Shown: one piece after another, positions 1,936 to 57,291 of the stretch
Position numbering within the stretch: the stretch's first letter is position 1
How the letters are laid out: every line of letters starts with the position of its first letter
Assembly: GCF_026571515.1 (NCBI RefSeq)
Contig: NW_026854344.1
Span: forward strand, 310,001 to 374,000
DNA from: Ruditapes philippinarum
Taxonomy: Eukaryota
Direction of reading: 5' to 3'
Length of the DNA: 64,000 nucleotides
Notes under the pieces: generated by a model
What the model was told of the DNA's origin: nothing
What the model saw: the letters and a program-made list of their open reading frames with translations, nothing else
Database searches by the model: none
Made by a program: the position numbers and the translations under genes

Positions 1936-2179
1936 GTAAGTGGATGAAAATCTGAAGTTTATAATTATGTACAAACCAGGAGATTTGATTAATTATGTAC
2001 ACACCAGGTACACATAAATAACTTGTCATTGTCACATTAAAATGTTGTCCCAAACTTGCGCATTTGAAATATGTAAACATAATTTAAAATGTAATATTGA
2101 AAATAAAATTCTAATACTAATTTTAAGCAAAGTCTTTCAATATAGGCAAAAATCACTGAGTGCACCCTAGGATATAGGA

Positions 2180-2378
2180 TCATTCAAAATAAGCTTATAG
2201 ACACACTTTCATATCGGTTCCTGGAATCAATCAGTACTGAGTAGTGTGTAGTAAGTGTAAAGTTTCTTGCTCAAGGAAAAAACTACTTGCCTATGACTGG
2301 GTTTGATCCCATGTTGCCAAAAATCCTTAGAATTGATTACTAGTTCAACGTGTTAACCACTTGGCCATGTCGCCACTA
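2180..2378 (-). mobile_element. CORE-type tRNA SINE (family B)
   Basis: Reverse complement contains a tRNA-like head and ccttgagcaagaaacttt; matches the + strand copy at 44113. Confidence 0.7.
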
Positions 2379-2868
2379 CTGGCCGGTCCCTTTGGCTTAT
2401 CAACGCAGGGTTTCTATTGACGCACATTTCCTGCGTCCTTGACGCAAAAATAGTAACCTAGGACCCTCAATTACTCTTAGTGTGCGTCCATTGGGACGCA
2501 AATTAAATTTTCCTCCGTAAATATCATTTGGAAATTCCTTCCGCTTCTTTAAAGGAAATGACGTAATTTGGTAGACGGGTTCTAAAATTGAATACAGCAG
2601 AGTTATCTTTCTTTCAATTAATAATAATTATTTTCATTCAAAATAATTCAATTTATTTTCGAGAAAGAAATAGTCCGTGTATTACATTAATATTGGTACC
2701 CGTTTTTATTAAGTATGTCATTACACATACGTGCATAAACTGAGCTACAGTCGTTTACAGTTACATTGCTATAAATGCGTGAAAATCGCGCAATGCTCCC
2801 ACTTGCTTTCGACAACGCATTCAGACTGATAGTACCTTAACGAGAATTCTAATTTGCTGTGTAACGCT

Positions 2869-3898
2869 ATGCCACGTGGTCGCAGGACAGCTGTAACATT
2901 GCCTACTCCTCAGGAAGAGGATAGAAATGCTAGAACAACGAGAGGCCGAAAGAGACCAGCTTCTACAGCGTTAACGTTGGAGGACTCCGTTGATGAGCGC
3001 ATGTTGCAGAACGAAGCCGGTAGGTCAAACACTATAGACTTTGAACAAATTCTTAAAGAGTCTCAGATTATTCCAAGCTCAAATTTAAGTAATAGTAATG
3101 AGGGGTGTGGTGCGCAAAATATTTTAGAACTCCCGCTTTCAGGCCCGCGAAAGGCCAGCACGGGTTTAAATTCGGCAAACAATGTGGTAACTACGCCACC
3201 GTTAGCCATGGTCCGCATAGCAGACGATGATATTGCGGCACATGTTCCAAGCTCCCTGAAGCAACAAATTTGCAAGGGTGAATATATTAACCTAGCCCTT
3301 TTGCTCAAAGGGGCTGTTGAGCTATCCGAGTTTTGTTCAGGCAGTTTATATCGCTTGAATGCGAATGGTCAGAAAGAATGTAAGGATACGAATTTTAACA
3401 AACGCCTTTATAATATACATGTCTGATTATTTGTCGGCACATGCAAATTAAATGTATGAACTGTTGCACTATATGTTCAACCTAAGAGAATGCGCTTTAC
3501 GTCAATGAAACGTTGCATTGTGGACGTACGACGAACAGTTTCACCTCCGTCAAGCTATTTCACCCGCCTCATGGTCAAAAATTAATAATGATTTGTGGTG
3601 GCGCTGCATGCAATTGCGCCCCCCTTCCAAAGCCCCATCAAGTTCCGTTAGATACCCGTGTAATGATTTCAATAGAGGTAGATGCTCATGGCGAAATTGT
3701 AAATTTGCCCACGTGTGTAACACGTGCGCGGCTCCTCATCCAGAATTTGCGTGCACTAAAAATCAGTCATCAACAAGTGGAAGTTTTAATCAGTTTAAGA
3801 ATAAGCTGTCAAGTGAGTCTGTAACGCCCCCGCAAAAATCCTTTCGTGCCAGTCCCTTCTACAGAAGAGGCGACTCTAAAAATGGGAGAAAAAATTGA
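2869..3898 (+). pseudogene. gag: Gag-like ORF1 with CCCH/CCHC-type zinc finger, disrupted
   Basis: Motifs HVPSSLKQQICKGEYINLALLL, TNAFIIYMS, YDEQF, CNDFNRGRC..NCKFAHVCNTCAAPHPEFAC. Frameshift near 3390; in-frame stops TAA 3449-3451 and TGA 3506-3508. Confidence 0.85.
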
Positions 3899-5579
3899 TA
3901 GCACAAAAAAAAACGGCCTTAGTTCGTTAGATGAAGTTAATTCTGATATTTTTTGTTTAGCAAAATCACCTGTCAAACTTTCAGTTTTAAGGAAATTATT
4001 AAAATATTACGATCAAGTTGAAGCTTCGTTTTTATTAAGTGGTTTTAAAAACGGCTTTCCTATTCAGTATTCAGGTCCACGTGCTCCACGTGACTCAAAA
4101 AACCTGCGTTCTACTTCACTTAATCCAGAGATAATAAAGTCTCAAATAAGTAAAGAGCTTTCCGCAGGCCGCATCGCTGGCCCATTTAAGAAAAGACCAA
4201 TCAAAAATTTAATTGTATCACCAATTGGTTTAGTGCCGAAAAAAGTGCCTGGTGAATATAGAATGATTCATCATTTGTCATTCCCGCCAGGCGAATCGGT
4301 TAATGACCACATTGATCCAGCGTTATGCACTGTGTAATACACAAGCTTTGATGACGCAGTCAAGATGGTTCAAGATCTAGGTCATAACTGTCAATTATTC
4401 AAGACGGACATCAAAAGTGCATACCGTATTATTCCTATTAAGCCGTGTGATTTTGAATTGTTAGGTTTTTATTTTGACGAGAATTATTACTTTGATAAGG
4501 CCCTACCTTTTGGGGCTTCTATAAGTTGTATCACATTTGAAAGATTTGCACGGTTTTTAGAGTTTTCTGTTGAGAGAAATCTAACTTCTGCGAAATTGTT
4601 GCATTATTTAGATGATTTTTTAGGAGGGGACAGATCTAAGGAAACATGTGCGCATGCGCTAAGAACTTTTAAAGATACAATGTCTGAGCTGGGCGTACCT
4701 TTGGCCGAAGACAAAACGGAGGGTCCGACGGAAGTGTTGACCTTTTTAGGCTTAGAATTAGATACAAACCAAATGTGCGTGCGTATACCTGAGCTTAAAG
4801 TTCTAGAAGTAACAAAAAAAATTCAGGAATGTCTGTCAAATAAGAAAACAACACTTAAGAAAATGCAATCACTAATAGGCTCGTTAAATTTTTGCTGTAG
4901 AGCAGTCATAGTTGGACGACCGTTCATTCGTCGTTTAATCAATTCAATTTGTGGCTTAAATAAACCACATCACCATATCAGAGTAAAAGAAGATATTTGT
5001 TTAGATTTAACTATGTGGTTACATTTTCTGAAACAATTTAATGGGGTTTCCGTTTTTCATGACCGATTTTGGGTGTCAAACGAAGATGTTCAGTTGTTTT
5101 CTGATAGTGCGGGTGGCAAAAACTTAGGTTTTGGGGTATATTTTCAAGGTCATTGGTGTCATGCTAAGTGGCCGGAAGTATGGCATGAGTTGGGCATAAC
5201 AGAGGATATAACGGTTTTGGAGCTTTTTCCCATCTTAGCGGCACTATATATATGGGGTTATGAGCTTAAAAATAAAAAGATACGGTTCAACTGTGATAAT
5301 TTTGCAGTGGTACATATATTGAATAAATTAACTTCTAAATCTGAAATGGTAATGTGTATTGTTAGAGTGTTAACATTACGTTGTTTAAAGCTCAATATTT
5401 TGATTAAGGCTTCGCATGTCCCCGGTTGCCAAAACAATATATGTGACGCTTTATCTCGGTTTCAGTTGACCAGGTTTCGAGAGTTAGCTCCAAACGCCGA
5501 CGAAATACCTTGCTTGGTCCCACCCTTCCTTTGGCACATCTTCAGTTTAGAGCCGGAAAGCTTATTCACTCTGGAATAG
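3846..5579 (+). pseudogene. pol: Reverse transcriptase / RNase H (DIRS-type pol) with one nonsense codon
   Basis: SPIGLVPKK..YRMIHHLS, KTDIKSAYR, LPFG, YLDDF, RNase H FSDSAG / LELFPI / NCDN / NNICDALSR. ORFs 3846-4337 and 4365-5579 share a frame, split only by TAA 4335-4337 (CTV*YTSFDDAV). Confidence 0.93.
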
Positions 5580-6433
5580 CGGCCAACTCAAGGTCAACAT
5601 ACAATACTTCTTTATCGGCCTTTGAGAAATTTCGGTCGCAATATGGGATGGAAAAGCAATCACCGATTCCTGTAAAACATATTATTTTGTTTTTATCATT
5701 TTGCTTTGAGAAAGGTCTGTCACCTAAATCAATCACAACGTACTTGGCAGGGATCAATTATTACCATAAACTTAACGATTTTTACTACATAAAGAAAGTT
5801 TTTATCATCAGAAAATTATTAGAAGGCTGCCATAGAAGTAGAATCTCGCTTGACAATCGTGCTCCTATAACTCTATCAGTTTTAGTTAACATCTGCAATT
5901 CTTTACCTATGGTTTGTTACGATAATTTTGAGGTGAAACTTTTTACATCGATTTTTGTTCTTGCATACTTTGGTCTTTTCCGTGTGAGTGAATTGGTTGC
6001 GACTAGTATTAACCATTGTGAGAATTCTTTACAAGAAAATGATGTGTCTTTTACACATAACAACAATTATTTAATGGTTCGTCTTAGGCATTTTAAAACT
6101 AATCAGAGAGGTAAACCAGTTTTCTTAAAATTACCGAGACAGACTTCACTACCTTGCCCTGTAGAGGCGCTAGAGAATTACTTAGTATGTAGACCGAATG
6201 TCCAAGGTTCATTGTTTTGTCACAAAAATGGTACGGTCGTAACTAGGTCTCAGTTTTCATCAGTTTTATCAAAATCCATCCGTTTTAATTCTACGCTCGT
6301 GGCACCATATAAAAGTCATAGTTTTAGAATTGGTAGAGCTACTGATCTTGCATCATTGGGTTATTCAGCGGAAACAATTAAACAGTTAGGACGCTGGAAT
6401 TCTGGGTGTTTCAATAACTACATTCGAGCTTAA
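5510..6433 (+). CDS. Tyrosine recombinase (YR integrase) of the retrotransposon
   Basis: Catalytic residues intact: FRVSEL (R), FKTNQ (K), HSFRIG (HxxR), GRW, YIR (Y). Overlaps the end of RNase H; no ATG at the 5' end. Confidence 0.93.
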   Translation: MLGPTLPLAHLQFRAGKLIHSGIAANSRSTYNTSLSAFEKFRSQYGMEKQSPIPVKHIILFLSFCFEKGLSPKSITTYLAGINYYHKLNDFYYIKKVFIIRKLLEGCHRSRISLDNRAPITLSVLVNICNSLPMVCYDNFEVKLFTSIFVLAYFGLFRVSELVATSINHCENSLQENDVSFTHNNNYLMVRLRHFKTNQRGKPVFLKLPRQTSLPCPVEALENYLVCRPNVQGSLFCHKNGTVVTRSQFSSVLSKSIRFNSTLVAPYKSHSFRIGRATDLASLGYSAETIKQLGRWNSGCFNNYIRA

Positions 6434-6489
6434 GCCTTTTTAATAAGACATAATTAGCTGTATCTCAAAGGCACTTTTTAACACTGTTC

Positions 6490-7092
6490 ATGTCAAATTA
6501 TTTATTTTTTCTGGTCTATTTATATTTAGATGTTTGGATTCTGGGGGATTCAATCCCATACTGGGCCGGGAATTATGCAAAGAATGCGGCTAAGGAGAAT
6601 TTGGGCTTGAAGGATGTGTCCATTGCCTGGTGGGCAGAGAGAGGCCTCAGATGGGGTGGTTTTAGACGCCTAATAGAAATGCAGGTGTTGTTATCTTTTC
6701 CACCTTCTATTATTTTTATTCATTTAGGTGGTAACGACCTTGTGTCGGTCAATACAGTTCAACTACGACTTTTAATTGAACAAGAAATTATATATTTAAG
6801 GGAAGCCTTTCCTCATACTGTGATAATCTGGGTTGATATTTTACAACGTCAAAATTGGTCAGGCGCTATTAGGGGATATCGACCTATCGAAATGAAAAGA
6901 AAACGCCTTAATCGTCTAGCCAGAAAAATTGTTACGTCATCAGGCTTAAGTGATATCATTATACCAGATATTGATGCGGCCACGGCCTTTTTTCGAGATG
7001 ATGGCGTACATCTCAATTCAGTAGGTTTGGAATTCTATCTAGATTATATTAAGGATGCTATTGTCAAGCATTTAGGAATACGCCATGTATAG
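6490..7092 (+). CDS. SGNH/GDSL hydrolase (esterase) ORF of the element; the true domain probably starts at ~6530
   Basis: Block I ILGDS, block II RG, block III HLGGNDL, block V DGVH, with an intact Ser-Asp-His triad. Confidence 0.88.
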   Translation: MSNYLFFLVYLYLDVWILGDSIPYWAGNYAKNAAKENLGLKDVSIAWWAERGLRWGGFRRLIEMQVLLSFPPSIIFIHLGGNDLVSVNTVQLRLLIEQEIIYLREAFPHTVIIWVDILQRQNWSGAIRGYRPIEMKRKRLNRLARKIVTSSGLSDIIIPDIDAATAFFRDDGVHLNSVGLEFYLDYIKDAIVKHLGIRHV

Positions 7093-7118
7093 ACCTGGAA
7101 GTTGTTACCGGTCTCTTT

Positions 7119-7146
7119 AATAAAAAAAAAAAAAAAAAAAAAAAAA
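7119..7146 (+). other. AATAAA overlapping a 25-nt poly(A) run after the hydrolase stop
   Basis: tttAATAAAAAAA...; A run 7122-7146. Confidence 0.6.
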
Positions 7147-8137
7147 TAGTATGAATAAATTTGGGGGATAAATTAATCAATTTATTGTGGCGAAAATTTA
7201 TTTTAAGAGAAGTGAAATTAATCAATTTATTGTGGCGAAAATTTATTCATGGAAGAAGTCAGATGTGTCACATTTTTTTGCATTAGCCGGTAAACTATTT
7301 TGCATTCGGTTCTGGTTACCCGGTAGCCAATGTTAAATGGTTTCAGTATGGCACATGTGTTTTTATTTAATAAGCTTGAAATTAAATATTAGCGCGACAC
7401 GTCTGGCTTTCTTGCTGTTTCGCTGCATTAGGTACATGTTTATAGGAATCAGGCGAGATACCTCGACTGGTTATTCAGAGCGGCCATTACCTCCATTATA
7501 TATTTTATTGATCTATTTGACTTGTATAAAAGCTATGATACAAGCTGAATTGCAGCGTATGCTCGTACAAAATAAATTTGACATTTAAATTTATTTGGTA
7601 TTCTTTTTTCTTTCGAATAGTAAAATAATTACAGTTTAATACGGAATAAAACGGCGCACACTAGAATTTAGTCGACCTTAAAAAAGCGTCCCAGTCTATG
7701 CGTTTTTTGTTACAAAATAAATCGTAAAACATGTCGGCTGCTCCCCCAATTTTAATGAAAAGTGGCTTACCCGTGGCTCGTCCAAAACGAGACGACCACG
7801 GATATGAAATGCAGCCATTGCGTCTCAACCAAAAAATGTAATCCATTTGCCTCGGAAAATGGAGGTTCGAATTTCCAAAATAGATACATTTGTCCGTCAT
7901 CAAGACGTAGAGCTATATGCAGTTAAACTAATTGATAAAATTAGTCGGACCAGATGTGAAAGATCTTGACTTTATGCAAGTTTCACAAACATTCAGCCAA
8001 ATAAAAGAAATGAAAAAATAAAAAGTAACAATAAATAATAAATGGTTTATATTTCTTATTTTATTTAACAAGGTCAATAAAAATGCATATGTAGTTGAAC
8101 AATGTATATAAATGTAAAGAATGAAACCTAGACAATA

Positions 8138-8791
8138 CAGTCAGGACTCATTACAATGACACTGTTGGTTCCCAAATGATATGTCAGTATATCGAATTTG
8201 TCAGTATATTGAACTTCATCATTTATAATGTAATGATATGCTTATTCGCTGGTATCTGAACATTATGTATTTAGGTCTATTATGATTTTTTGTGTGTTTA
8301 TGTGTTCACTTTATTATACACATTACATATCATACACATAATACAACAACTTTATTAAAATAATAACAACTAAACTAAACTCGTTTTTGTTGTTCAAAAG
8401 TTAAATTAGTCCGTTGATGTTTAGCTGGAGGTTCTGCCATTATTTTAATAAAAAGTCACAAGTTGGCAAGTGTAACAAAACAACAACACGTTGGTATTGT
8501 AATAAGGTGTAACAATCAACTGACCAAGCTACAATACCTGTTTTAACACCTTGCGGCTTTTGTTCACGGCTCAATGATGCGCGTGCTTGACTGACCAAGT
8601 GTCAGTTTAACGGGTACTGATTGTATAGAAAATAACACGTTTGGTTTCCAATTTTATTGTGTCGGAGTCGGAATACGAATTTTCCGTTATAAAGGATTAT
8701 AATAACGTTGAAAAAATTTGGTTCCCACCAATTCACTGTCGTTATTTGAATTTGTCAGTATAATGGATTCCGATGTATTGAGTCCTGACTG
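8138..8791. mobile_element. Tc1/mariner-pogo-type MITE nested in the TIR shell
   Basis: TA|CAGTCAGGACTCA ... TGAGTCCTGACTG|TA; subterminal gaatttgtcagtata at both ends. Confidence 0.9.
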
Positions 8792-8942
8792 TATATATAA
8801 GTAATACCTTACTTTAAAGTAATAAATGATTAGGACCCTCATATTTTTCTCTGGGACCCTCATATTTTATAAGCACGAGTCCCTGGGACTCTTAAATAAA
8901 AATTCCTAGTAGAAACCCTGCAACTGATAACTGACTAAAGCC

Positions 8943-10529
8943 CAGGGCTCATCCTGGGGGGAAATTTTAGGGAGAAGTGACGACCTCGCGAAAATTAGGG
9001 AGAAGGGAAACAACCCAATGTGTATGCATTAACATGTATGGCTATACATCCTTTAATTATAATATAAACACAATTAACATCACTTATAATATTTCTCCAG
9101 TTTATTAATTAATAGTAGTATTAATTAAAAGTAGATTAATTATTTAGTAGTAGATCAGGCAATTGCATCTAAGCTTTCTCTAAATATGTGTTTATATATT
9201 TTCATGTACATTTGTTGATAATAATGTGTAAGAAAGGATGATGATAAAATCAATTTCATATTTTTTACTTTACTTTCCTCACCTTTAAAAGAAAAGATGA
9301 AGTCACATTGGATATTGATTAATAATATCTGTTCTGGTAACAGAAATTTCTCTCAAAATCCTGAACGTTGTAATGTCACATTTATATGCATATAATTATG
9401 CTTATAAAACAATTTTCAAACATCAAAGAATATGTAAAATATGTACTGCAAACATTTGTGCACATTATATTTGATCACTAAAATTACATACATTCATTTC
9501 TTATTGAAAAATTTGACTGAGAAATTGTAGAAAATTAATTTCTAATTACCTCCCTTTATTTTCATGAAATGTTCAATTCGATAATATCTTTATAAATAAT
9601 GCTTTTTAAAATTTACAATATTGATAAATCTTAAGCTGAGCGTCATATTTACGAATTTATTTTGAAACAAGAAGAACACTTCTTTCCAAACAAATGTTGT
9701 TGTTATATACACGTTACATGATATACGACCGATATGTAGTTAAGCCCCGTCTTGCCCACGTGCGTAAACTGTGTCAAATTTGGCATTTCTACAAAGAGAA
9801 CAATGCCAAACACCCCCTACTGTCTACAACATACCAATCGGAAGATTTTTGCGAATTGGCTTTCTTAAATTTTCGCGTATCAGAATCAGTAACTTTCTTA
9901 CTGCTCGGTTACGGCATTTCGCCTTGTAGCCATGACGTGAGCGACGTAACAATTTTACAGTAAAAATTGATGTTAACAGACTGAAATCATTCAAAACTAT
10001 GATTAAGTTTTTAATCTGGTTGCTGATCATTAATGAAATTGATTATTTTTAATTGACTAACAGTTTTGTGATAGCCGTGAAAAATCCATTGCACATCGCC
10101 TTTACTCGGGTTAAAAACCCACCATCGAAGTGCATCGTGTACATCAATTAGGGAAGATTGTACTTGTTTAGATAATCGGGGAAAAAACAATTTATAATTA
10201 TCGCCAAATCCCGTATTAAACTCGCAAAACTATCACACAATTATACCGTTTCGGGCCGATGCTCTCATTATTTACTGTTTAGAGTAGGCGGTCTATCGCT
10301 TCGCTTACAGGTAGAAGGGTAGTATAAAGCGACGCTCTGATTGGATAATGATAATTAGCGGTCGTCATATGGGCGGATACAATCTCTGCTCTTTACATTG
10401 CTAAGTAATTACTATTTGGGAATTAAGATTTTATCGGCGATGTTGACTTCTCTTTGATCAATCGGAAGAGCGAAATTGGAATATACACGGCGAAGTTTTC
10501 GCCTGAATCACCCTTCCGGATGAGCCCTG
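8943..10529. mobile_element. Non-autonomous CAGGG-TIR DNA transposon with perfect 5-bp TSD (hAT5-like)
   Basis: TIRs CAGGGCTCATCC (8943-8954) / GGATGAGCCCTG (10518-10529); TSD AAGCC on both sides; no coding capacity. Confidence 0.88.
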
Positions 10530-11872: not shown

Positions 11873-13970
11873 CAGTAAGACACACCATCAGTGTAACAGT
11901 TAGACACACTGTCAGTGTAACAGTTAGACACACTTCCAGTGTAACAGGGAGACACACTGTCAGTGTAACAGTTAGACACACTTCCAGTGTAACAGGGAGA
12001 CACATTATCAGTGTAACAGTTAGACACACTATCAGTGTAACAGTTAGACACACTATCAGTGTAACAGTTAGACACACCATCAGTGTAACAGTTAGACACA
12101 CTATCAGTGTAACAGTTAGACACACTGTCAGTGTAACAGTTAGACACACCATCAGTGTAATAGTTAGACACACTTCCAGTGTAACAGTTAGACACACTTC
12201 CAGTGTAACAGGGAGACACACTGTCAGTGTAACAGTTAGACACACTTTCAGTGTAACAGTTAGACACACTGTCAGTGTAACAGACACACTGTCAGTGTAA
12301 CAGTTAGACACACTATCAGTGTAACAGACACACTGTCAGTGTAACAGTTAGACACACTATCAGTGTTACAGTTAGACACACTATCAGTGTAACAGTTAGA
12401 CACACTATCAGTGTAACAGTTAGACACACTATCAGTGTTACAGTTAGACACACTTTCAGTGTAACAGGGAGACACACCATCAGTGTAATAGTTAGACATA
12501 CTATCAGTGTAACAGTTAGACACACTTTCAGTGAAACAGTTAGACACACTATCAGTGTAACAGTTAGACACACCATCAGTGCAATAGTTAGACATAGTAT
12601 CAGTGTAACAGTTAGACACACTATCAGTGTATTAGTGAGACACACTATCAGTGTAACAGTTAGACACACTGTCAGTGTATTAGTGAGACACACTTTCAGT
12701 GTAACAATTAGACACACCATCAGTGTAACAGTTAGACACACTATCAGTGTAACAGTTAGACACACTGTCAGTGTAACAGTTAGACACACCATCAGTGTAA
12801 TAGTTAGACACACCATTAGTGTAACAGTTAGACACACTTCCAGTGTAACAGGGAGACACACTGTCAGTGTAACAGTTAGACACACTTCCAGTGTAACAGG
12901 GAGACACACTTTCAGTGTAACAGTTAGACACACTATCAGTGTAACAGTTAGACACACTATCAGTGTAACAGTTAGACACACCATTGGTATAACAGTTAGA
13001 CACACTATCAGTGTAACAGTTAGACACACCATCAGTGTAACAGTTAGACACACTGTCAGTGTAACAGTTAGACACACCATTAGTGTAACAGTTAGACACA
13101 CTTCCAGTGTAACAGGGAGACACACTGTCAGTGTAACAGTTAGACACACTTTCAGTGTAACAGTTAGACACACTGTCAGTGTAACAGACACACTGTCAGT
13201 GTAACAGTTAGACACACTATCAGTGTAACAGACACACTGTCAGTGTAACAGTTAGACACACCATCAGTGTAATAGTTAGACATACTATCAGTGTAACAGT
13301 TAGACACACTATCAGTGTAACAGTTAGACATACTATCAGTGTAACAGTTAGACACACTATCAGTGTATTAGTGAGACACACTATCAGTGTAACAGTGAGA
13401 CACACTATCAGTGTAACAGTTAGACACACTGTCAGTGTAACAGTTAGACACACCATCAGTGTAATAGTTAGACACACTTCCAGTGTAACAGTTAGACACA
13501 CTTCCAGTGTAACAGGGAGACACACTGTCAGTGTAACAGTTAGACACACTGTCAGTGTAACAGACACACTGTCAGTGTAACAGTTAGACACACTATCAGT
13601 GTAACAGACACACTGTCAGTGTAACAGTTAGACACACTATCAGTGTTACAGTTAGACACACAATCAGTGTAACAGTGAGACACACTATCAGTGTAACAGT
13701 TAGACACACTATCAGTGTAACAGTTAGACACACTATCAGTGTAACAGTGAGACACACAATCAGTGTAACAGTGAGACACACTATCAGTGTAACAGTGAGA
13801 CACACTATCAGTGTAACAGTTAGACACACTATCAGTGTAACAGTGAGACACACTGTCAGTGTAACAGTTAGACACACTGTCAGTGTAACAGTTAGACACA
13901 CAATCAGTGTAACAGTAAGACACACTATCAGTGTAACAGTGAGACACACTGTCAGTGTAACCGACACACA
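11873..13970. repeat. 24-bp minisatellite (CAGTGTAACAGTTAGACACACTAT), ~87 units, with 20-bp deletion variants
   Basis: Direct periodicity; diverged copies at ~11480-11580. Confidence 0.97.
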
Positions 13971-16938: not shown

Positions 16939-17000
16939 AAATGACAATCCTTTCCTTTTCTTTTCTTTTCTATCAAAATGAATGTAAGATTTTCATCAAA

Positions 17001-18555
17001 TCCTGTCTTATAGTGATTATCTTCTAGTCTCATAGTGATTGTCCTCCAGTCCAATCTTATAGTGATTATCCTCTAATCTCATAGTGATTGTCCTCCAGTC
17101 CTGTCTTATAGTGATTATCTTCTAGTCTCATAGTGATTGTCCTCCAGTCCAGTCTTATAGTGATTATCCTCTAGTCTCATAGTGATTGTCCTCCAGTCCA
17201 ATCTTATAGTGATTATCCTCTAGTCTCATAGTGATTGTCCTCCAGTCCAGTCTTATAGTGATAATCCTCTAGTCTCATAGTGAATGTCCTCCAGTCCTGT
17301 CTTATAGTGATTATCTTCTAGTCTCATAGTGATTGTCCTCCAGTCCAGTCTTATAGTTGTTATCCTCTAGTCTCATAGTGATTGCCCTCCAGTCCTGTCT
17401 TATAGTGATTATCCTCTAGTCTCATAGTGATTGTCCTCCAGTCCTGTCTTATAGGGTATTATCCTCTAGTCTCATAGTGAAATGTCCTCCAGTCCAGTCT
17501 TAAAGTGATTATCCTCTAGTCGCATAGTAATTGTCTTCCAGTCCCTCTAGTCTCATAGTGAATGTCCTCCAGTCCAGTCTTAAAGTGATTATCCTCTAGT
17601 CGCATAGTAATTGTCTTCCAGTCCAGTCTTATAGTGATTATCCTCTAGTCTCATAGTGATTGTCCTCCAGTCCTGTCTTATAGTTATTATTCTCTAGTCT
17701 CATAGTGAATGTCCTCCAGTCCTGTCTTATAGTGATTTTCTTCTAGTCTCATAGTGATTGTCCTCCAGTCCAGTCTTATAGTGATTATTCTCTAGTCTCA
17801 TAGTGATTTCCTCCAGTCCTGTCTTTAGTGATTATCTTCTAGTCTCGTTAGTGAATTGTCCTCCAGTCCTTTGTCTTATAGTGATAATCCTCTAGTCTCA
17901 TAGTGATTGACCTCCAGTCCAGTCTTATAGTGATAATCCTCTAGTCTCATAGTGATTGTCCTCCAGTCCAGTCTTATAGTGATTATCCTCTAGTCTCATA
18001 GTGATTGTCCTCCAGTCCAGTCTTATAGTGATTATCCTCTAGTCTCATAGTGATTGTCCTCCAGTCCTGTCTTATAGTGATTATCTTCTAGTCTCATAGT
18101 AATTGTCCTCCAGTCCTGTCTTATAGTTATTATCCTCTAGTCTCATAGTGAATGTCCTCCAGTCCTGTCTTATAGTGATTATCTTCTAGTCTCATAGTGA
18201 TTGTCCTCCACGTCCAGTCTTACAGTGATTATCTTCTAGTCTCATAGTGATTGTCCTCCAGTCCAGTCTTACAGTGATTATCCTCTAGTCTCATAGTGAT
18301 TGTCCTCCAGTCCAGTCTTACAGTGATTATCCTCTAGTCTCATAGTGAATGTCCTCCAGTCCTGTCTTATAGTTATTATCCTCTAGTCTCATAGTGAATG
18401 CCCTCCAGTCCTGTCTTATAGTGATTATTATCTAGTCTCACAGTGATTGTCCTCCAGTCCTGTCTTATAGGTTTTATCCTCTAGTCTCATAGTGAATGTC
18501 CTCAAGTCCTGTCTTATAGTGATAATCTTCTAGTCTTATAGTGATTATCTTCTTG
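17001..18555. repeat. 49-bp minisatellite, ~32 units, built from related 27-bp and 22-bp subunits
   Basis: AGTCCTGTCTTATAGTGATTATCCTCT + AGTCTCATAGTGATTGTCCTCC; period 49 (17006 to 17055). Confidence 0.96.
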
Positions 18556-18734
18556 TCATCACATCCTCTCTCATAGTGCATTTTCTTCAATAGGGACTTA
18601 AATATGACTTCCTTAACAATTTTTTTGGATATTAAACAAAGAAGGAAAAGATTTGGGCTAAAACTAACCAGAATTCGCTATAACATTGTTTGCTTTAAAT
18701 GAAGTTTACTGCAGTCCTTGAGTCCTCTTAAATA

Positions 18735-34390: not shown

Positions 34391-36760
34391 AAATAGTGGT
34401 CAAAGATCACTGATGAAATAGTGGTAGAAGATCACTGATAAAATAGTAGTAGAAGATCACTTATGAAATAATGGTACCAGATAATGTAAAAGATCACTGA
34501 TGAAATAGTGGTACAAGATCAGTGATGAAATAGTGATAGAAGATCACTAATGAAATACTAGTAGAAGATCACTGATGAAATAGTGGTAGATCACTGTTGA
34601 AGTAGTGGTAGGAAATAACTAATAAAATCGTGGCAGGAGATCACTGATAAAATAGTGATAGAGGATCACTGATAATAATGGTAGAAGATCACTGATGAAA
34701 TAGTGGTAGAAGATCGCTGATAATAATGGTAGAAGGTCTCTGATGAAATAATGGCAAGAGATCACTGGTGAAATAGTGGTAGAAGATAACTGATAATAAT
34801 GGTAGATGATCTCTGATGAAATAGTGGTAGAAGATTACTGATAGAATAGTGGTAGAAGATCACTGATGAAATAGTGGTAGAAGATCACTGATGAAATAGT
34901 GGTAGAAGATCACTGATGAAATACTGGTAGAAGATCACTTATGAAATAGTGGTAGATCACTGATGAAATAGTGGTAGAAGATCACTGATGAAATAGTGGT
35001 AGAAGATCACTGATGAAATAGTGGTAGAAGATCACTGATGAAATACTGGTAGAAGATCACAGATGAAATAGTGGTAGAAGATCACTGATGAAATGATGGT
35101 AGAAGATCACTGATGAAATAGTGGTAGTAGATCACTGATGAAATAGTTGTAGAAGATCACTGATGAAATACTGGTAGAAGATCACTGATGAAATACTGGT
35201 AGAAGATCACTGATAAAATAGTGGTAGAAGATCACTGATGAAATAGCAGCAGAAGATCGCTGATGAAATAGTGGCAGTAGATCACTGATGAAATAGTGGT
35301 AGAAGATCACTGATGAAATAGTGGTAGAAGATCACTGATGAAATAGTGGTAGAAGATCACTGATGAAATGATGGTAGAAGATCACTGATGAAATAGTGGT
35401 AGTAGATCACTGATGAAATAGTGTAGTAGATCACTGATGAAATAGTGGTAGAAGATCACTGATGAAATAGTGTAGAGATCACTGATGAAAATAGTGGTAG
35501 AAGATCACTGATGAAATAGCAGCAGAAGATCGCTGATGAAATAGTGGCAGTAGATCACTGATGAAATAGTGGTAGAAGATCACTGATGAAAATAGTGGTA
35601 GTAGATCACTGATGAAATAGTGGTAGTAGATCACTGATGAAATAGTGGTAGAAGATCACTGATGAAATACTGGTAGTAGATCACTGATGAAATAGTATCA
35701 GTAGATCACTGATGAAATAGTGGTAGAAGATCACTGATGAAATAGTGGTAGGATATCACTGATGAAATAGTGTCAGTAGATCACTGATGAAATAGTGGTA
35801 GTAGATCACTGATGAAATAGTGTCAGTAGATCACTGATGAAAAAGTGGTAGAAGATCACTGATGAAATACTGGTAGTAAATCACTGATGAAATAGTGTCA
35901 GTAGATCACTGATGAAATAGCGGCAGAAGATCACTGATGAAATAGTGGTAGAATATCACTGATGAAATAGTGGTAGGATATCACTGATGAAATAGTGGTA
36001 GAAGATCACTGATGAAATAGTGGTAGGATATCACTGATGAAATAGTGGTAGAATATCACTGATGAAATAGTATCAGTAGATCACTGATGAAATAGTGGTA
36101 GAAGATCACTGATGAAATAGTGGTAGGATATCACTGATGAAATAGTGTCAGTAGATCACTGATGAAATAGTGGTAGTAGATCACTGATGAAATAGTGGTA
36201 GTAGATCACTGATGATATGTGGAAGTAGATCACTGATGAAATAGAGTCAGAAGATCACTGATGAAACAGTGGTAGGATATCACTGATGAAACAGTGGTAG
36301 AAGATCACTGATGAAATACTGGTAGAAGATCACTGATGAAATACTGGTAGATAATTGATGAAATAGTGGTAGTTAAAAATCACTGATGGAATAGAGGTAG
36401 AAGATCACTGATGAAAAAGTGGTAGTAAATCACTGATGAAATAGTGGTAGGATATCACTGATGAAACAGTGGTAGAAGATCACTGATGAAATACTGGTAG
36501 AAGATCACTGATGAAATACTGGTAGATAATTGATGAAATAGTGGTAGTTAAAAATCACTGATGGAATAGTGTCAGTAGATCACTGATGAAATAGTGGTAG
36601 TAGATGATCACTGATGAAATAGCGGTAGAATATCACTGATGAAAAAGTGGTAGAATATTACTGATGAAATAGTGGTAGGAAATCTGATGAAATAGTGGTA
36701 GAAGATCACTGATGGAATAGTGTTAAAAGATCACTGATGAAATAGTGGTACAGGATCACT
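34391..36760. repeat. 25-bp minisatellite (GATCACTGATGAAATAGTGGTAGAA), ~95 units; diverged A-rich continuation to ~37170
   Basis: Direct periodicity. Confidence 0.97.
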
Positions 36761-37278
36761 AAGATCATGTACAGAAACTTGTAAATAGATCACTAATACA
36801 AGTATCTGAGATCGCAAGTAAAAATTGATAGGCTAAAAATGCAAGATATATTTGTAAAGGATCACTGGTAAAACAATCACTTATCAAAACTGGTCAATAG
36901 ATAACAAGTCAAAACAGTTAAATGATCAATAGTAAAAACTGGTTTAAAGATCACTAGTAAAAACTGTAAAATGACCACTAGTAAGAACTGGTAAAAAAAT
37001 CACTATTTATCATTAGTAATAACCGATAAAAAGATCACTAGTCAAAACTGGTAAAAAGATCAATTGTCAAAACTAGTAAAAGGATCTCTAGTCATAACTA
37101 GTTAAAAGATCACAAGTCAAAACTAGTAAAAGATCATAAGTCAAAACTGGTGTAAAGATCACTTGCAAAAACTATAATTATTTCGTTTGAAATTACTGGT
37201 CTATATAAACATACTTACATGTGATAAAAATTACGTTTTCATCTTTTACAGGTAGTTCTTCATTTCGAACCAGACACA

Positions 37279-44112: not shown

Positions 44113-44322
44113 GGAAGCGTAGCTAAGTGGTTGACACGTCAGACTAGTAATCTAAGGAATGCTGGCAATGTGTGTTTAAACACATCAGGGGCAAGCTGTT
44201 TTTTTTTCATGAGCAAGAAACTTTACACTCATTGCTTAGTACTTTTTGGTTCCAGAGAGGGATTCGAGAGTGTTTCAATAAGCTTATAGCTTCCAACACA
44301 ATAAAACTAAAATAAATTTGTA
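44113..44322 (+). mobile_element. CORE-type tRNA SINE (family B); further decayed copies at ~45400-45555 and ~51590-51720
   Basis: gtagctaagtggtt A box; tgagcaagaaactttacactcattgcttagtact core. Confidence 0.75.
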
Positions 44323-47329: not shown

Positions 47330-48635
47330 CTTTTGTTGATAATCAGTGTTAGATAATGTTGCTTGACAAGGTTAGTACCCTCTGTAAACAACCAGTGAAA
47401 TACAATGCTAGGCAGGGTAACTTCTTAGAACAACCAGTGCAAAACAATGTTAGGAAAGGTACCCTCTGTTAACAACTAGTGCTAAATAAGGTTAGGTGAG
47501 GTACTCTCCATAAATAACCAGTGCTAAAAAGATCAGGCAAGGTACCTTCTGTAAACAACCAGTGCTAAAAAGATAAGGCAATGTACCCTCTGTAAACAAC
47601 CAGTGCTAAAAAGATAAGGCAAGGTACCTTCAGTAAACAGCCAGTGCTAGAAAGATAAGGCAAGGTACCTTCTCTAAACAACCAGTGCTAAAAAGATAAG
47701 GCAAGGTACCTTCTGTAAACAACCAGTGCTAAAAAGATAAGGCAAGGTACCTTCTCTAAACAACCAGTGCTAAACAAGGTTAGACAAGGTACTCTCTGTA
47801 AACAACAAGTGCTAAAAATATAAGGCAAGGTACCTTCTGTAAACAACCAGTGCTAAAAAGATAAGGCAAGGTACCTTCTGTAAACAACCAGTGCTAAAAA
47901 TATAAGGCAAGGTACCTTCTGTAAACAACCAGTGCTAAAAAGATATAGCAAGGTACCCTCTGTAAACAACCAGTGCTAAAAAGATCAGGCAAGGTACCTT
48001 CTGTAAACAACAAGTGCTAAAAAGATAAGGCAAGGTACCTTCTCTAAACAACCAGTGCTTAAAAGATAAGGCAAGGTACATTCTGTAAACAACCAGTGTT
48101 AAAAAGATAAGGCAAGGTACCCACTGTTAACAACTAGTGTTAGACTAGGTGAGGCAAGGAACCCTCTGTAAACAACCAGTGTTAGACAAGGTTAGACGGG
48201 ATATGCGCTGTTTGCAACCAGTGCTATTCAAGTTAAGGTCAAGGTACCCTCTATAAACAGCAAGTACTAGACAAGGTTAGGCAAAGTACCCTCTGTAAAC
48301 AAACAGTGCTTGAAAAAGTTTTATGGCAATGCACCTTCTGTAAACCACCTGTGTTAGGCAAAGTTAGGCAAGGTACTCTCTGTAATCAACCAGTGTTGGA
48401 GAAAAATAAGCAAGGTACCCTCTTAAAACAATTAGTGCTAAGCAAGGTTAGGCAAGGTACCCTCTGAAAACAATCAGTGCTTTACAAGGTTTAAGACAAG
48501 GTACCCTTTGTAAACAACCAGTGCTAGACAAGGTAAGGCAAGGTACCTTCTGCAAACAAGTGCTTGACAAGGTTAGGGAAGGTACCCTCTGTAAACATCC
48601 AGTGTTAGGTAAGGTTTAAGGCAAGATACCCTCTT
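47330..48635. repeat. 41-bp minisatellite (AAGGCAAGGTACCTTCTGTAAACAACCAGTGCTAAAAAGAT), ~32 units
   Basis: Period 41 (47521 to 47562); homogeneous centre, diverged edges. Confidence 0.95.
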
Positions 48636-49517
48636 TAAATCAATTTTTACCTGCCTTTAATAACAATTATTAATATATTCAATATGAGATTTTTTATCAA
48701 ATCTTAAGGGATTGAATTATTGCATGAATAAGATAAAAAGGAACACAGTTTTAGGAATAATTATCATAACAGCAGTATGCCCATGTGTGGCAAACAAGAT
48801 AGAGAGAATCTTTCAAGACTTTGTAAATTGGATTCAAATAGTCAGAATTATCAGTTATAATTGATAGGCAGTTTGAAACTATTTTGAGTTTCAAGTTTTG
48901 TGCAAAAAAAATTGTTTAAATCATTTTATCTGTTACTGTAATTGAAATGATAAACTGTATGTAAACAGATTTCAACTTTGCTGCCTGTAAAACATATTTT
49001 CCTAGTCTGTCTGTAAATTATACATTTCACATAAATGTTCTTTTCCCTGACTGCCAGTTTCCATGCAAAAAAAACTAGAAGCTTATAACTTAAGGTACTT
49101 CACTTATCTGTAAACTGGTTACACATTATTAATACTGAAGTCAAAGGATGTATAAACATATAGAAAACATCAAAAGATATATGATTGTAGGCAGACATCT
49201 GAAAAATTGTTTCATGCATAAACATTGTAGTTATATAAATAGACTAACATACCTGGTAAAATCATTATATTTGTTTGTTATTATCTTAGAATAGATACAT
49301 TCTTTTGTAATATTAGCCAGGAGTAGCCAGAATGACCTGAATTTTGAAGATAATTTCTTTCATCTCTGGCACCTTTCTGTTTAACTCTTTATCCTTGAAA
49401 ATGATTCTTGTCCATCTTTCAGTATTGCCAAAACCATTCATTATATTTAGGAAAAATTTCAGAATATGTGCTGATTGATCTATCAAACAGTGCAGACCAT
49501 GATCAGATGGCATGGGG

Positions 49518-55907: not shown

Positions 55908-57291
55908 TTATTATACCCCCAAAAACGAAGTTTGGGGGGGTATATAGGAGTCACCCGGTGGTCGGTCGGTCGGGCGGTCGGTCGGTCGGTCCAGACGTCC
56001 GTTGCATTTTCCTTGTCCGGAGCATAACTTGAAAACTAATGATTGGAATTCAATATAACTACACACAATGGTCTAGCACATTGAGAGGAAGTGCAGTGCA
56101 CAAGAACCATAACTCTATCTAAAGTAATTACAGAGTTATTGCCCTTTGTTACTTTTCCATTCCTTTCTTTTGTCCGGAGCATAACTTGAAGACTAATGGT
56201 TGGAATTCAATATAACTACATACAATGGTCAAGCACATTGAGAGGAAGTGCAGTGCACAAGAACCATAACTCTATCTTGACTAATTACAGAGTTATTGCC
56301 CTTTGTTTATTTTCCTTGTCCGGGGCATAACTTGAAAACTACTGGATGGAATTCAAAACAACTTCATACAATTGTCAAACACAATAAGGGGAAGTGCAGT
56401 GCACAAGAACTATAACTCTATTTAAAGTAATTACAGAGTTATTGCCCTTTGTTACTTTTCCATTCCTTTCTTTTGTCCGGACCATAGCTTGAAGACTAAT
56501 TGTTGGAATTCATTATAACTTAATACAATTGTCAAGCACATTGAGAGGAAGTGCAGTGCACAAGAACCATAACTCCATCTTGACTTATTACAGAGTTACT
56601 GCCCTTTGTTACTTTTCCTTGTCCAGAGCATGACTTGAAAACTACTGGTTGGAATTCAAAACAACTTCATACAATGGTCAAGCACAATAAGGGGAAGTGC
56701 AGTGCACAAGAACTATAACTCCATCTTGACTAATTACAGAGTTATTGCCCTTTGTTACTTTTCCATTGCTTTTTTTGTCCGGAGCATAACTTGAAAACTA
56801 ATAGTTGGAATTCAATATAACTTCATACAATTGTCAAGCACATTGAGAGGAAGTGCAGTGCACAAGAACCATAACTCGATTTTGACAAAATACAGAGTTA
56901 CTGCCCTTTGATACTTTTCATTGTCCGGAGCATAACTTAAAACATACTGGTTGGAATTCAAAACAACTTCATACAATGGTCAAGCACAATAAGAGGAAGT
57001 GCAGTGCACAAGAACTTTAACTCCATCTTCAGTATTTATAGAGTTATTTATTGCCCTTTGTTTCTTTTGCTTGTCTTTCTGGACTTATTACAGAGTAATT
57101 CAATAAAACTTCATCAATGGCCAACTACATTGGAAGGAAATGCAACATACAAGAACCACAACTATCTTTTATTGCCCACAACCATAACTCTATATTTTAA
57201 TTCTTTTACAAGGTATTCTGTTACTAGTAACATCCTCATTTCTGAAGCAGTCTTGTGGGGGTATTAATCACATTTAGTGATAGTTCTAGTT
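55908..57291 (+). mobile_element. Helentron-associated non-autonomous element (HINE / DINE-1 / pearl-like) with an internal tandem array
   Basis: 5' subTIR ttataccccc with hairpin, (GGTC)n microsatellite, 7 core repeats of 146-157 bp, 3' subTIR gggggtatta, palindrome tcac..gtga, ctagtt end in a T-rich site. Confidence 0.88.

Follow-up and report, generated by a model that had tools for sequence, protein, structure and literature searches.

Evidence for ordinary nesting of a decayed Ngaro retrotransposon and a miniature inverted-repeat element in a hAT5-like non-autonomous transposon of Ruditapes philippinarum

We analysed a stretch of 64,000 nucleotides (nt) from Ruditapes philippinarum (contig NW_026854344.1, positions 310,001 to 374,000 of the forward strand), hereafter the window, in which a retrotransposon cassette encoding a tyrosine recombinase (YR) lies between the ends of a DNA transposon. 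Coordinates are those of the window, and the parts of both elements described below lie on its forward strand. The outer element begins with an 11-bp terminal inverted repeat (TIR), CAGGGTTTCTA, at 2406-2416 and closes with its reverse complement (8910-8920). Neither is found a second time in the 64 kb, where the chance expectation for one 11-mer of this composition is 0.01 per window. The flanking target site duplication (TSD) reads CAACG on the left (2401-2405) and CAACT on the right (8921-8925), a match at four of five positions, and when lengths from 2 to 10 were scanned only 5 fitted well (chance ~0.01). Counted on both strands, 8 of the 32 GGACNC sites in the window fall within the terminal 100 nt of the two element ends, at 2433, 2461, 2484 and 2494 on the left and at 8833, 8854, 8877 and 8886 on the right. 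The matched TIRs, GGACNC subterminal motifs and caacg/caact 5-bp TSD described in an initial annotation of this DNA are thereby borne out, the last at 4/5 identity. The outer element is divided into a left arm of 213 nt with four of the GGACNC motifs (2406-2618, multi-copy by depth), a continuation of 510 nt (7626-8135) that reads and contigs join directly to 2618, and a 3′ end of 129 nt (8792-8920) with the other four motifs and the 3′ TIR; minus both passengers it measures 852 nt. Further copies of arm or cassette were not found inside the 64-kb window, an exact search of metagenome contigs with the 22-nt left end gave 0 matches, and an Rfam scan of the window likewise returned 0 matches.

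The larger passenger is a Ngaro-type YR retrotransposon copy of 5007 nt (2619-7625, ends ±4 nt, as set by a read joint and the letters at the junction). It comprises a gag-like open reading frame (ORF) with a CCCH finger (2869-3898), whose frame shifts near 3390 and meets a stop at 3506-3508; a reverse transcriptase/RNase H (RT/RH) frame with YLDD and no methyltransferase motif (3825-5579), interrupted by one stop at 4335-4337; a tyrosine recombinase ORF that overlaps pol (5447-6433), with R...K...HxxR...W...Y residues that we take to be catalytic; an SGNH/GDSL hydrolase ORF with GDS, GxND and DxxH (6454-7092); and, 3′ of the latter, a run of A25 (7122-7146). Pfam matches were obtained for RVT_1 (E 4e-14), Phage_int_SAM_1 (5e-5), Phage_integrase (2.5e-4) and Lipase_GDSL_2 (5e-8), with a weak match for the CCCH finger (0.03). 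The YR and SGNH frames are open, and those of gag and RT are broken, so that the full gag-RT/RH-YR-SGNH cassette of the initial annotation holds as to gene content and not as to integrity. Downstream of RH, where the frame stops 40 aa past the DALS of that domain, we found neither a Pfam match to a methyltransferase nor a DPPY-type motif. The order gag, RT/RH, YR (overlapping pol), SGNH fits Ngaro (order DIRS) in its animal SGNH subset; animal Ngaro elements are described as carrying gag, RT/RH, YR and SGNH and no methyltransferase (PMC9210276, PMC3783388, PMC4157794). On its gene order and motifs the cassette is a Ngaro element. A DIRS1-like identity was rejected, there being no inverted match longer than 11 nt between the cassette ends (no inverted terminal repeats or internal complementary region, ITR/ICR) and no methyltransferase. 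Among 1050 candidates, 252 YR homologs were recovered, the closest named ones from bivalves (Mercenaria 57%, Ruditapes 52%), together with one unnamed protein that is 99% identical; none of 36 candidate stretches in viral contigs held a YR relative. Animal-type Ngaro elements also occur in GTDB genomes labelled Sedimenticola or Candidatus Thiodiazotropha (loci L001-L006), where they are probably host DNA in symbiont bins, and one YR homolog (P0047) is likewise named a bacterial integrase.

The relation between the two elements was examined in public sequencing runs, of which 20 of the 24 listed contain the stretch, the best with 0.58 of the sampled words. Four runs from four studies, two as raw reads (X21, X24) and two as contig sets (X2, X9), were aligned to the region 1951-9150 at 85% likeness, and 15 of 41 joints were listed. 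A joint from 2618 to 7626, which skips the 5007 bases of the cassette, is present in all four runs, supported by 18 reads with 17 starts in X21, by 27 reads with 22 starts in X24, and by a single contig in either contig set (depth 130.7 in X2, 346.8 in X9). The 4-nt core TAAT fits on either side of this joint and, because 2619-2622 equals 7626-7629, the ends of the cassette are uncertain by 4 nt. Three of the four runs also contain a variant of the empty joint, running from 2618 to 7634 (in X2 a contig of depth 17, in X21 and in X24 two reads apiece); its junction has nine different letters, either a subfamily difference or a footprint. An AT-rich inverted match of 10 nt (2625-2634 with 7622-7631), within 2622-2634 and 7619-7631, lies around the shared core at both junctions; it could be a pair of binding arms for the recombinase or, the DNA being AT-rich, a chance match. 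The shared TTTCTTTC (2608-2615, 7607-7614) was rejected as the crossover core: the joint sits at 2618/7626 and the alignment was matched by 8 of 100 shuffles. Apparent internal skips at 4261-4690, 4726-5127 and 5186-5437 were also rejected as deletions; they occur in contigs only and are read as patchy alignment of remoter families. A further joint, 8135 to 8792, found in all four runs, skips 656 bases with a TA duplication and delimits the second passenger, a MITE (miniature inverted-repeat transposable element) of 654 nt at 8138-8791 with the TIR CAGTCAGGACTCA (at least 13 bp), no strand being assigned to it. We take this MITE to be Tc1/mariner-like by the TA-duplication rule. The initial annotation had overlooked it, and likewise a remnant of transposase (7731-7915) and an exact 33-nt repeat (7170 and 7215).

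Coverage suggests that empty arms are the prevalent form. With contig depth taken as a rough guide only, the empty-joint contig exceeds the cassette interior by a factor of 2.4 in X2 and 3.5 in X9; measured against the same flank contig of X2, the empty-joint contig stands at ~15x and the cassette interior at ~6x. In the raw reads the arm bins are 3-7x as deep as the cassette interior, and the left-arm bin 2431-2670 reaches 4-9x across the data. X21 yields 20 joint reads, where 14-17 are expected if the arms are all empty and 9-12 if every cassette sits in arms (P 0.002-0.015). For the divergence check, 10 positions were chosen from the best 40 of 990 difference rows, pre-selected for strong support; at these positions the reads of X21 and X24 differ from the window in 141 of 144 cases for the arms and in 88 of 92 for the cassette, from which it appears that the variants of the window copy have not been amplified in these two runs. 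The RT stop, being among the 10 differing positions so chosen, looks private to the window copy. Compared with eight family contigs, the window cassette is 0.7-3.1% different, mostly by substitutions (in one case 35 letters, as against 5 gaps, over 2895).

The affinity of the outer element was assessed from the piece between its two passengers, which holds a probable frameshifted 5′ remnant of a hAT transposase with a zinc finger of the C17orf113/ZNF862 type (7731-7915). Its best piece, 7768-7878, matches Pfam zf-C17orf113 (PF25431) at E 5.6e-6 and 26.5 bits, a score under the 29.5 cut-off and over 37 aa only. A protein search with this piece against 1.84 billion representatives gave a single match (P0121, 59%, E 4e-6), which led to three longer relatives (P0122-P0124), two of them bivalve C17orf113-like or zinc finger protein 862-like proteins. 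DUF4371 was found in two of the three by our own scan and in all three by precomputed annotation, and all contain LDET, TDGA, CxxH and RW motifs, presumably the hAT DDE core. The Pfam hAT dimerisation domain was not matched in these relatives, and a PDB sequence search with P0122 gave no solved transposase and one weak unrelated match. ZNF862 is listed as hAT-derived (PMC3257199), and hAT5 is named as a DNA-transposon group with a 5-bp TSD (PMC12730594). With hAT5 the outer element shares a 5-bp TSD, a short TIR starting CAG and repeated subterminal motifs, and probably the C17orf113/ZNF862-type transposase; the length of the TSD rests on two loci, the outer element (4/5) and a CAGGG-ended neighbour (5/5). 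Unlike hAT5 transposons, it is a non-autonomous derivative of ~850 nt without a catalytic domain for clade placement. Because the ~850-nt empty element retains a broken hAT-transposase zinc finger, it is best read as a hAT5-like internal-deletion derivative and as a candidate member of the hAT5 clade. In bivalves hAT elements and MITEs are abundant and Ngaro and DIRS elements low-copy (PMC10294476).

The initial annotation had found neither the split direct repeats expected of Ngaro nor the ITR/ICR of DIRS1, and self-comparison of the window copy agrees: the longest exact direct match between the 5′ and 3′ non-coding parts of the cassette is shorter than 15 nt, 8 of 100 shuffles score as high as their best local alignment, and the only repeat found is the local one of 33 nt (7170-7202 and 7215-7247). 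Repeats are nonetheless suggested for the family. Relative to the cassette interior, the A-side bin is covered 1.65-fold (X21), 1.13-fold (X24), 2.38-fold (X2) and 1.74-fold (X9), and the B-side bin 2.07-, 1.63-, 2.75- and 1.95-fold in the same order. An X2 contig covering 2627-2834, which starts at 2627 without flank, has a depth of 137.8 against 54.5 for the interior contig (2.5x), and an X9 contig covering 7278-7580 has 219.7 against 98.3 (2.2x). Depth of about twofold at both cassette ends is expected if each element has A and B twice, or if there are solo AB units. On contig depth and the A1 repeat of relatives, we assign a putative A1 to 2619-2834, its right end approximate (2834-2855), and, on contig depth and the B start of loci L002 and L006, a putative single B repeat, a B1/B2 hybrid or B2, to 7185-7625, its start approximate.

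Relatives point the same way. Of 74 related loci, 6 came from genome contigs and 68 from metagenomes; those whose YR is 43-47% identical have these four ORFs as well, and SGNH is encoded in 29 of the 43 loci with at least 700 nt downstream of YR. Among the 32 loci of at least 3.5 kb, both repeat pairs, A and B, were seen in L002 and L006, and an A pair in L013 and L018; L047 has one repeat pair after YR. The A1 of relatives stops ~55 nt upstream of the gag ATG, and in L002 and L006 B starts, after the SGNH ORF, at a TGTGGCGGAAATT-like motif right behind a G-rich motif. The window carries both motifs at 7157-7198, within a segment of motifs conserved in the clade (7157-7247) in which the B-start motif occurs twice, in the 33-nt repeat. 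Relatives at only 43-60% YR identity keep the G-rich motif after SGNH and, behind it, a TGTGGCGGAAA-like motif, and the latter occurs in 23 of the 74 loci; the conserved pair is likely a cis signal at the B start. L006 (6186-7443) and L002 (5570-6782) further contain a unique spacer of ~1.2 kb between A2 and B2, without a long ORF, which opens with a CCCACCC-type tract that also follows A2 in L018, giving the layout A1-ORFs-B1-A2-spacer-B2. SIRE corresponds to A2 and B2 of VIPER with a short unique part in between (PMC6681497); that part is roughly 30 bp, as against ~1.2 kb here. Judged by these motifs and depths, the window copy is read as a Ngaro element with A2 and one B lost. Xenopus Ngaro copies are often without part or all of their repeats (PMC9210276) and solo AB units of Ngaro occur in Cafeteria (PMC8547959), so the missing repeats need no special cause.

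Taken together, we conclude, with a probability of roughly 0.92, that the locus is a decayed Ngaro copy and a MITE nested in one copy of a hAT5-like non-autonomous element, an ordinary nesting and not a composite family, although one or a few composite loci are conceivable. Because the outer relic also exists empty, no new hybrid is called for. The initial annotation had offered two accounts, a plain nested insertion in a hAT5-like non-autonomous element and a retroelement cassette now moving as cut-and-paste cargo; the cassette-free arm joints in all four runs support the former and leave the latter unsupported, arms of a composite being expected mainly with the cassette. Cassette copies with normal split repeats in unrelated flanks, which would also speak for simple nesting, are indicated indirectly, by the doubled depth of the ends, the contig at the A end and the A1-B1-A2-B2 order of relatives.

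Under this nested reading, an internally deleted hAT element of ~850 nt that kept both TIRs and the first transposase codons would have spread in many copies, presumably through transposase supplied in trans, and one copy would have landed at the locus with a 5-bp TSD. The passengers would have followed the hAT copy. Ngaro elements integrate via tyrosine-recombinase exchange, and the Ngaro copy would have entered 213 nt inside the hAT5-like copy by strand exchange at the AT-rich core of 4 nt, so that TAAT stands on either side and a transposase-type TSD is absent, a mechanism proposed on the model of the family. For the YR-encoding Cryptons, short direct repeats are held to reflect microhomology and not a true TSD (PMC13465315). 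A TA-targeting MITE entered the other arm. A2 and one B would then have been lost from the Ngaro copy. The simplest route would be that B1 recombined with B2; alternatively, a segment running from early in B1 nearly up to B2 may have dropped out, with the 33-nt repeat as its relic. Papers found on repeat loss through recombination dealt mostly with retroviruses. The copy has picked up frame-breaking changes as well. Since both ends cannot be rebuilt without A2, the Ngaro copy is read as dead.

Several observations weigh against this reading. The read counts of X24 do not separate empty-only arms from all-composite ones (P 0.4-0.8), and the A-side depth ratio of that run is only 1.13. The comparison is with public runs, in which no second full cassette copy was read with its flanks; these runs come from other individuals, the best with the 0.58 of sampled words given above, and part of the difference between window and runs may therefore be polymorphism. 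The joint from B end to A start expected from B1-A2 is absent among the 15 listed of 41 joints, all of them skips, and an A pair or both pairs were seen in 4 of the 32 loci of at least 3.5 kb, most of which are short contigs cut at repeats.

A first alternative accepts the nesting and holds that the assembly collapsed B1 onto B2, so that A2 and one B would be missing from the assembled sequence and not from the genomic copy, whose split repeats would be full. B is ~440 nt and would be near-identical in both copies, and the short-read contigs of relatives break at the A/B repeats, as such a collapse would have it. However, no N occurs in the window and tandem arrays of more than 2 kb are resolved in it, which suggests a long-read assembly, and its differences from the family contigs are mostly the substitutions of a decayed copy. 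We regard a collapse as unlikely, and it would alter only the account of the missing repeats, not the nesting.

It is similarly improbable that the low-copy Ngaro family is tied to the hAT5-like element, with two or more loci bearing the cassette at an identical place in the arm, whether by recombinase preference or by movement of the 6.5-kb composite by hAT5 transposase. In the former case the Ngaro family would prefer this hAT5-like site, and several arm copies would have been hit independently at one and the same position. The left side of the target resembles the B end and the right side the A start, in the best local non-coding match, and a precedent exists in Cafeteria Ngaro type 1, 91% of which lies in EMALEs (PMC8547959). 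This match of ends and target is, however, AT-rich and equalled by 8 of 100 shuffles; the X2 contig of the A end begins at 2627 without arm sequence; a diverged copy in X2 (record 7, 1039 nt, at single-copy depth) matches 7385-7609 with 558 letters off the arm; and the X21 counts disfavour the placement of all cassettes in arms. We consider site preference very doubtful. Least credible is a composite of arms and cassette cut and pasted at least once by hAT5 transposase with the retroelement as passive cargo, for although both TIRs and the subterminal motifs are intact, the unit is just 6.5 kb, the X24 counts are compatible with composites and MER6 offers a precedent of a retro-derived part on a MITE (PMC6887750), empty arms predominate in all four runs, the variants of the window copy are not amplified in X21 and X24 at positions drawn from the best 40 of 990 rows, the TSD has one mismatch, and DNA transposition is reviewed as falling above 6 kb of cargo (PMC6431247).

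As found, the nesting matters little, nested insertions being routine in repeat-rich animal genomes. It does give one read-defined Ngaro integration site, with its empty target known and a 4-nt shared core, and an example of a Ngaro copy reduced to A-ORFs-B. Were the two families tied, a YR retroelement would either owe its spread to a DDE transposase or home in on a relic DNA transposon, much as the Ngaros of Cafeteria do on virophages; were the composite moved by hAT5 transposase, a repeat-less and dead YR retroelement would have gained a second route of spread. In a narrow search, we did not find such a composite of YR retroelement and DNA transposon in the literature.

The surroundings of the nest are also repeat-rich. 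Rightward by 22 nt lies the CAGGG-ended neighbour (8943-10529), a non-autonomous TIR element of 1587 nt with CAGGGCTCATCC ends, a perfect 5-bp TSD (AAGCC) and no long ORF, the left end of which is high-copy in the runs examined. Just left of the outer element, a short and very high-copy repeat at 2189-2377, SINE-like (short interspersed element) by size, is ~545 reads deep in X21 against 3.4 for the flank, and has a diverged copy at 44122-44181. Tandem arrays occupy 11873-13961 (period 24 nt), 16988-18588 (49), 34391-37174 (25), 47375-48639 (41) and 56006-57048 (~146-151 nt). Outside the cassette, no stop-free frame of at least 200 aa was found in the window except in the 24-nt array.

Three described systems bear comparison with this locus. 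DIRS-53_XT and DIRS-54_XT of Xenopus (PMC9210276) share with the cassette the series gag, RT/RH, overlapping YR and then SGNH, without methyltransferase, and probably, at the family level, A and B repeats, and copies with lost repeats occur there too; the window copy differs from them in having one A and one B only and in the bivalve origin of its closest named YR homologs, and the related contigs L002 and L006 differ by their 1.2-kb spacer. The Cafeteria Ngaros in endogenous virophages (PMC8547959) are likewise found inside a DNA element bounded by TIRs and TSDs. Nesting there is recurrent and type-specific, whereas here it is a single case and the host is a short hAT relic. For the composite account, the analogue is the MER6 MITE with a V-SINE domain (PMC6887750), in which a class I part has spread inside a class II element; MER6 was amplified with its cargo, whereas the amplified form here is the empty element.

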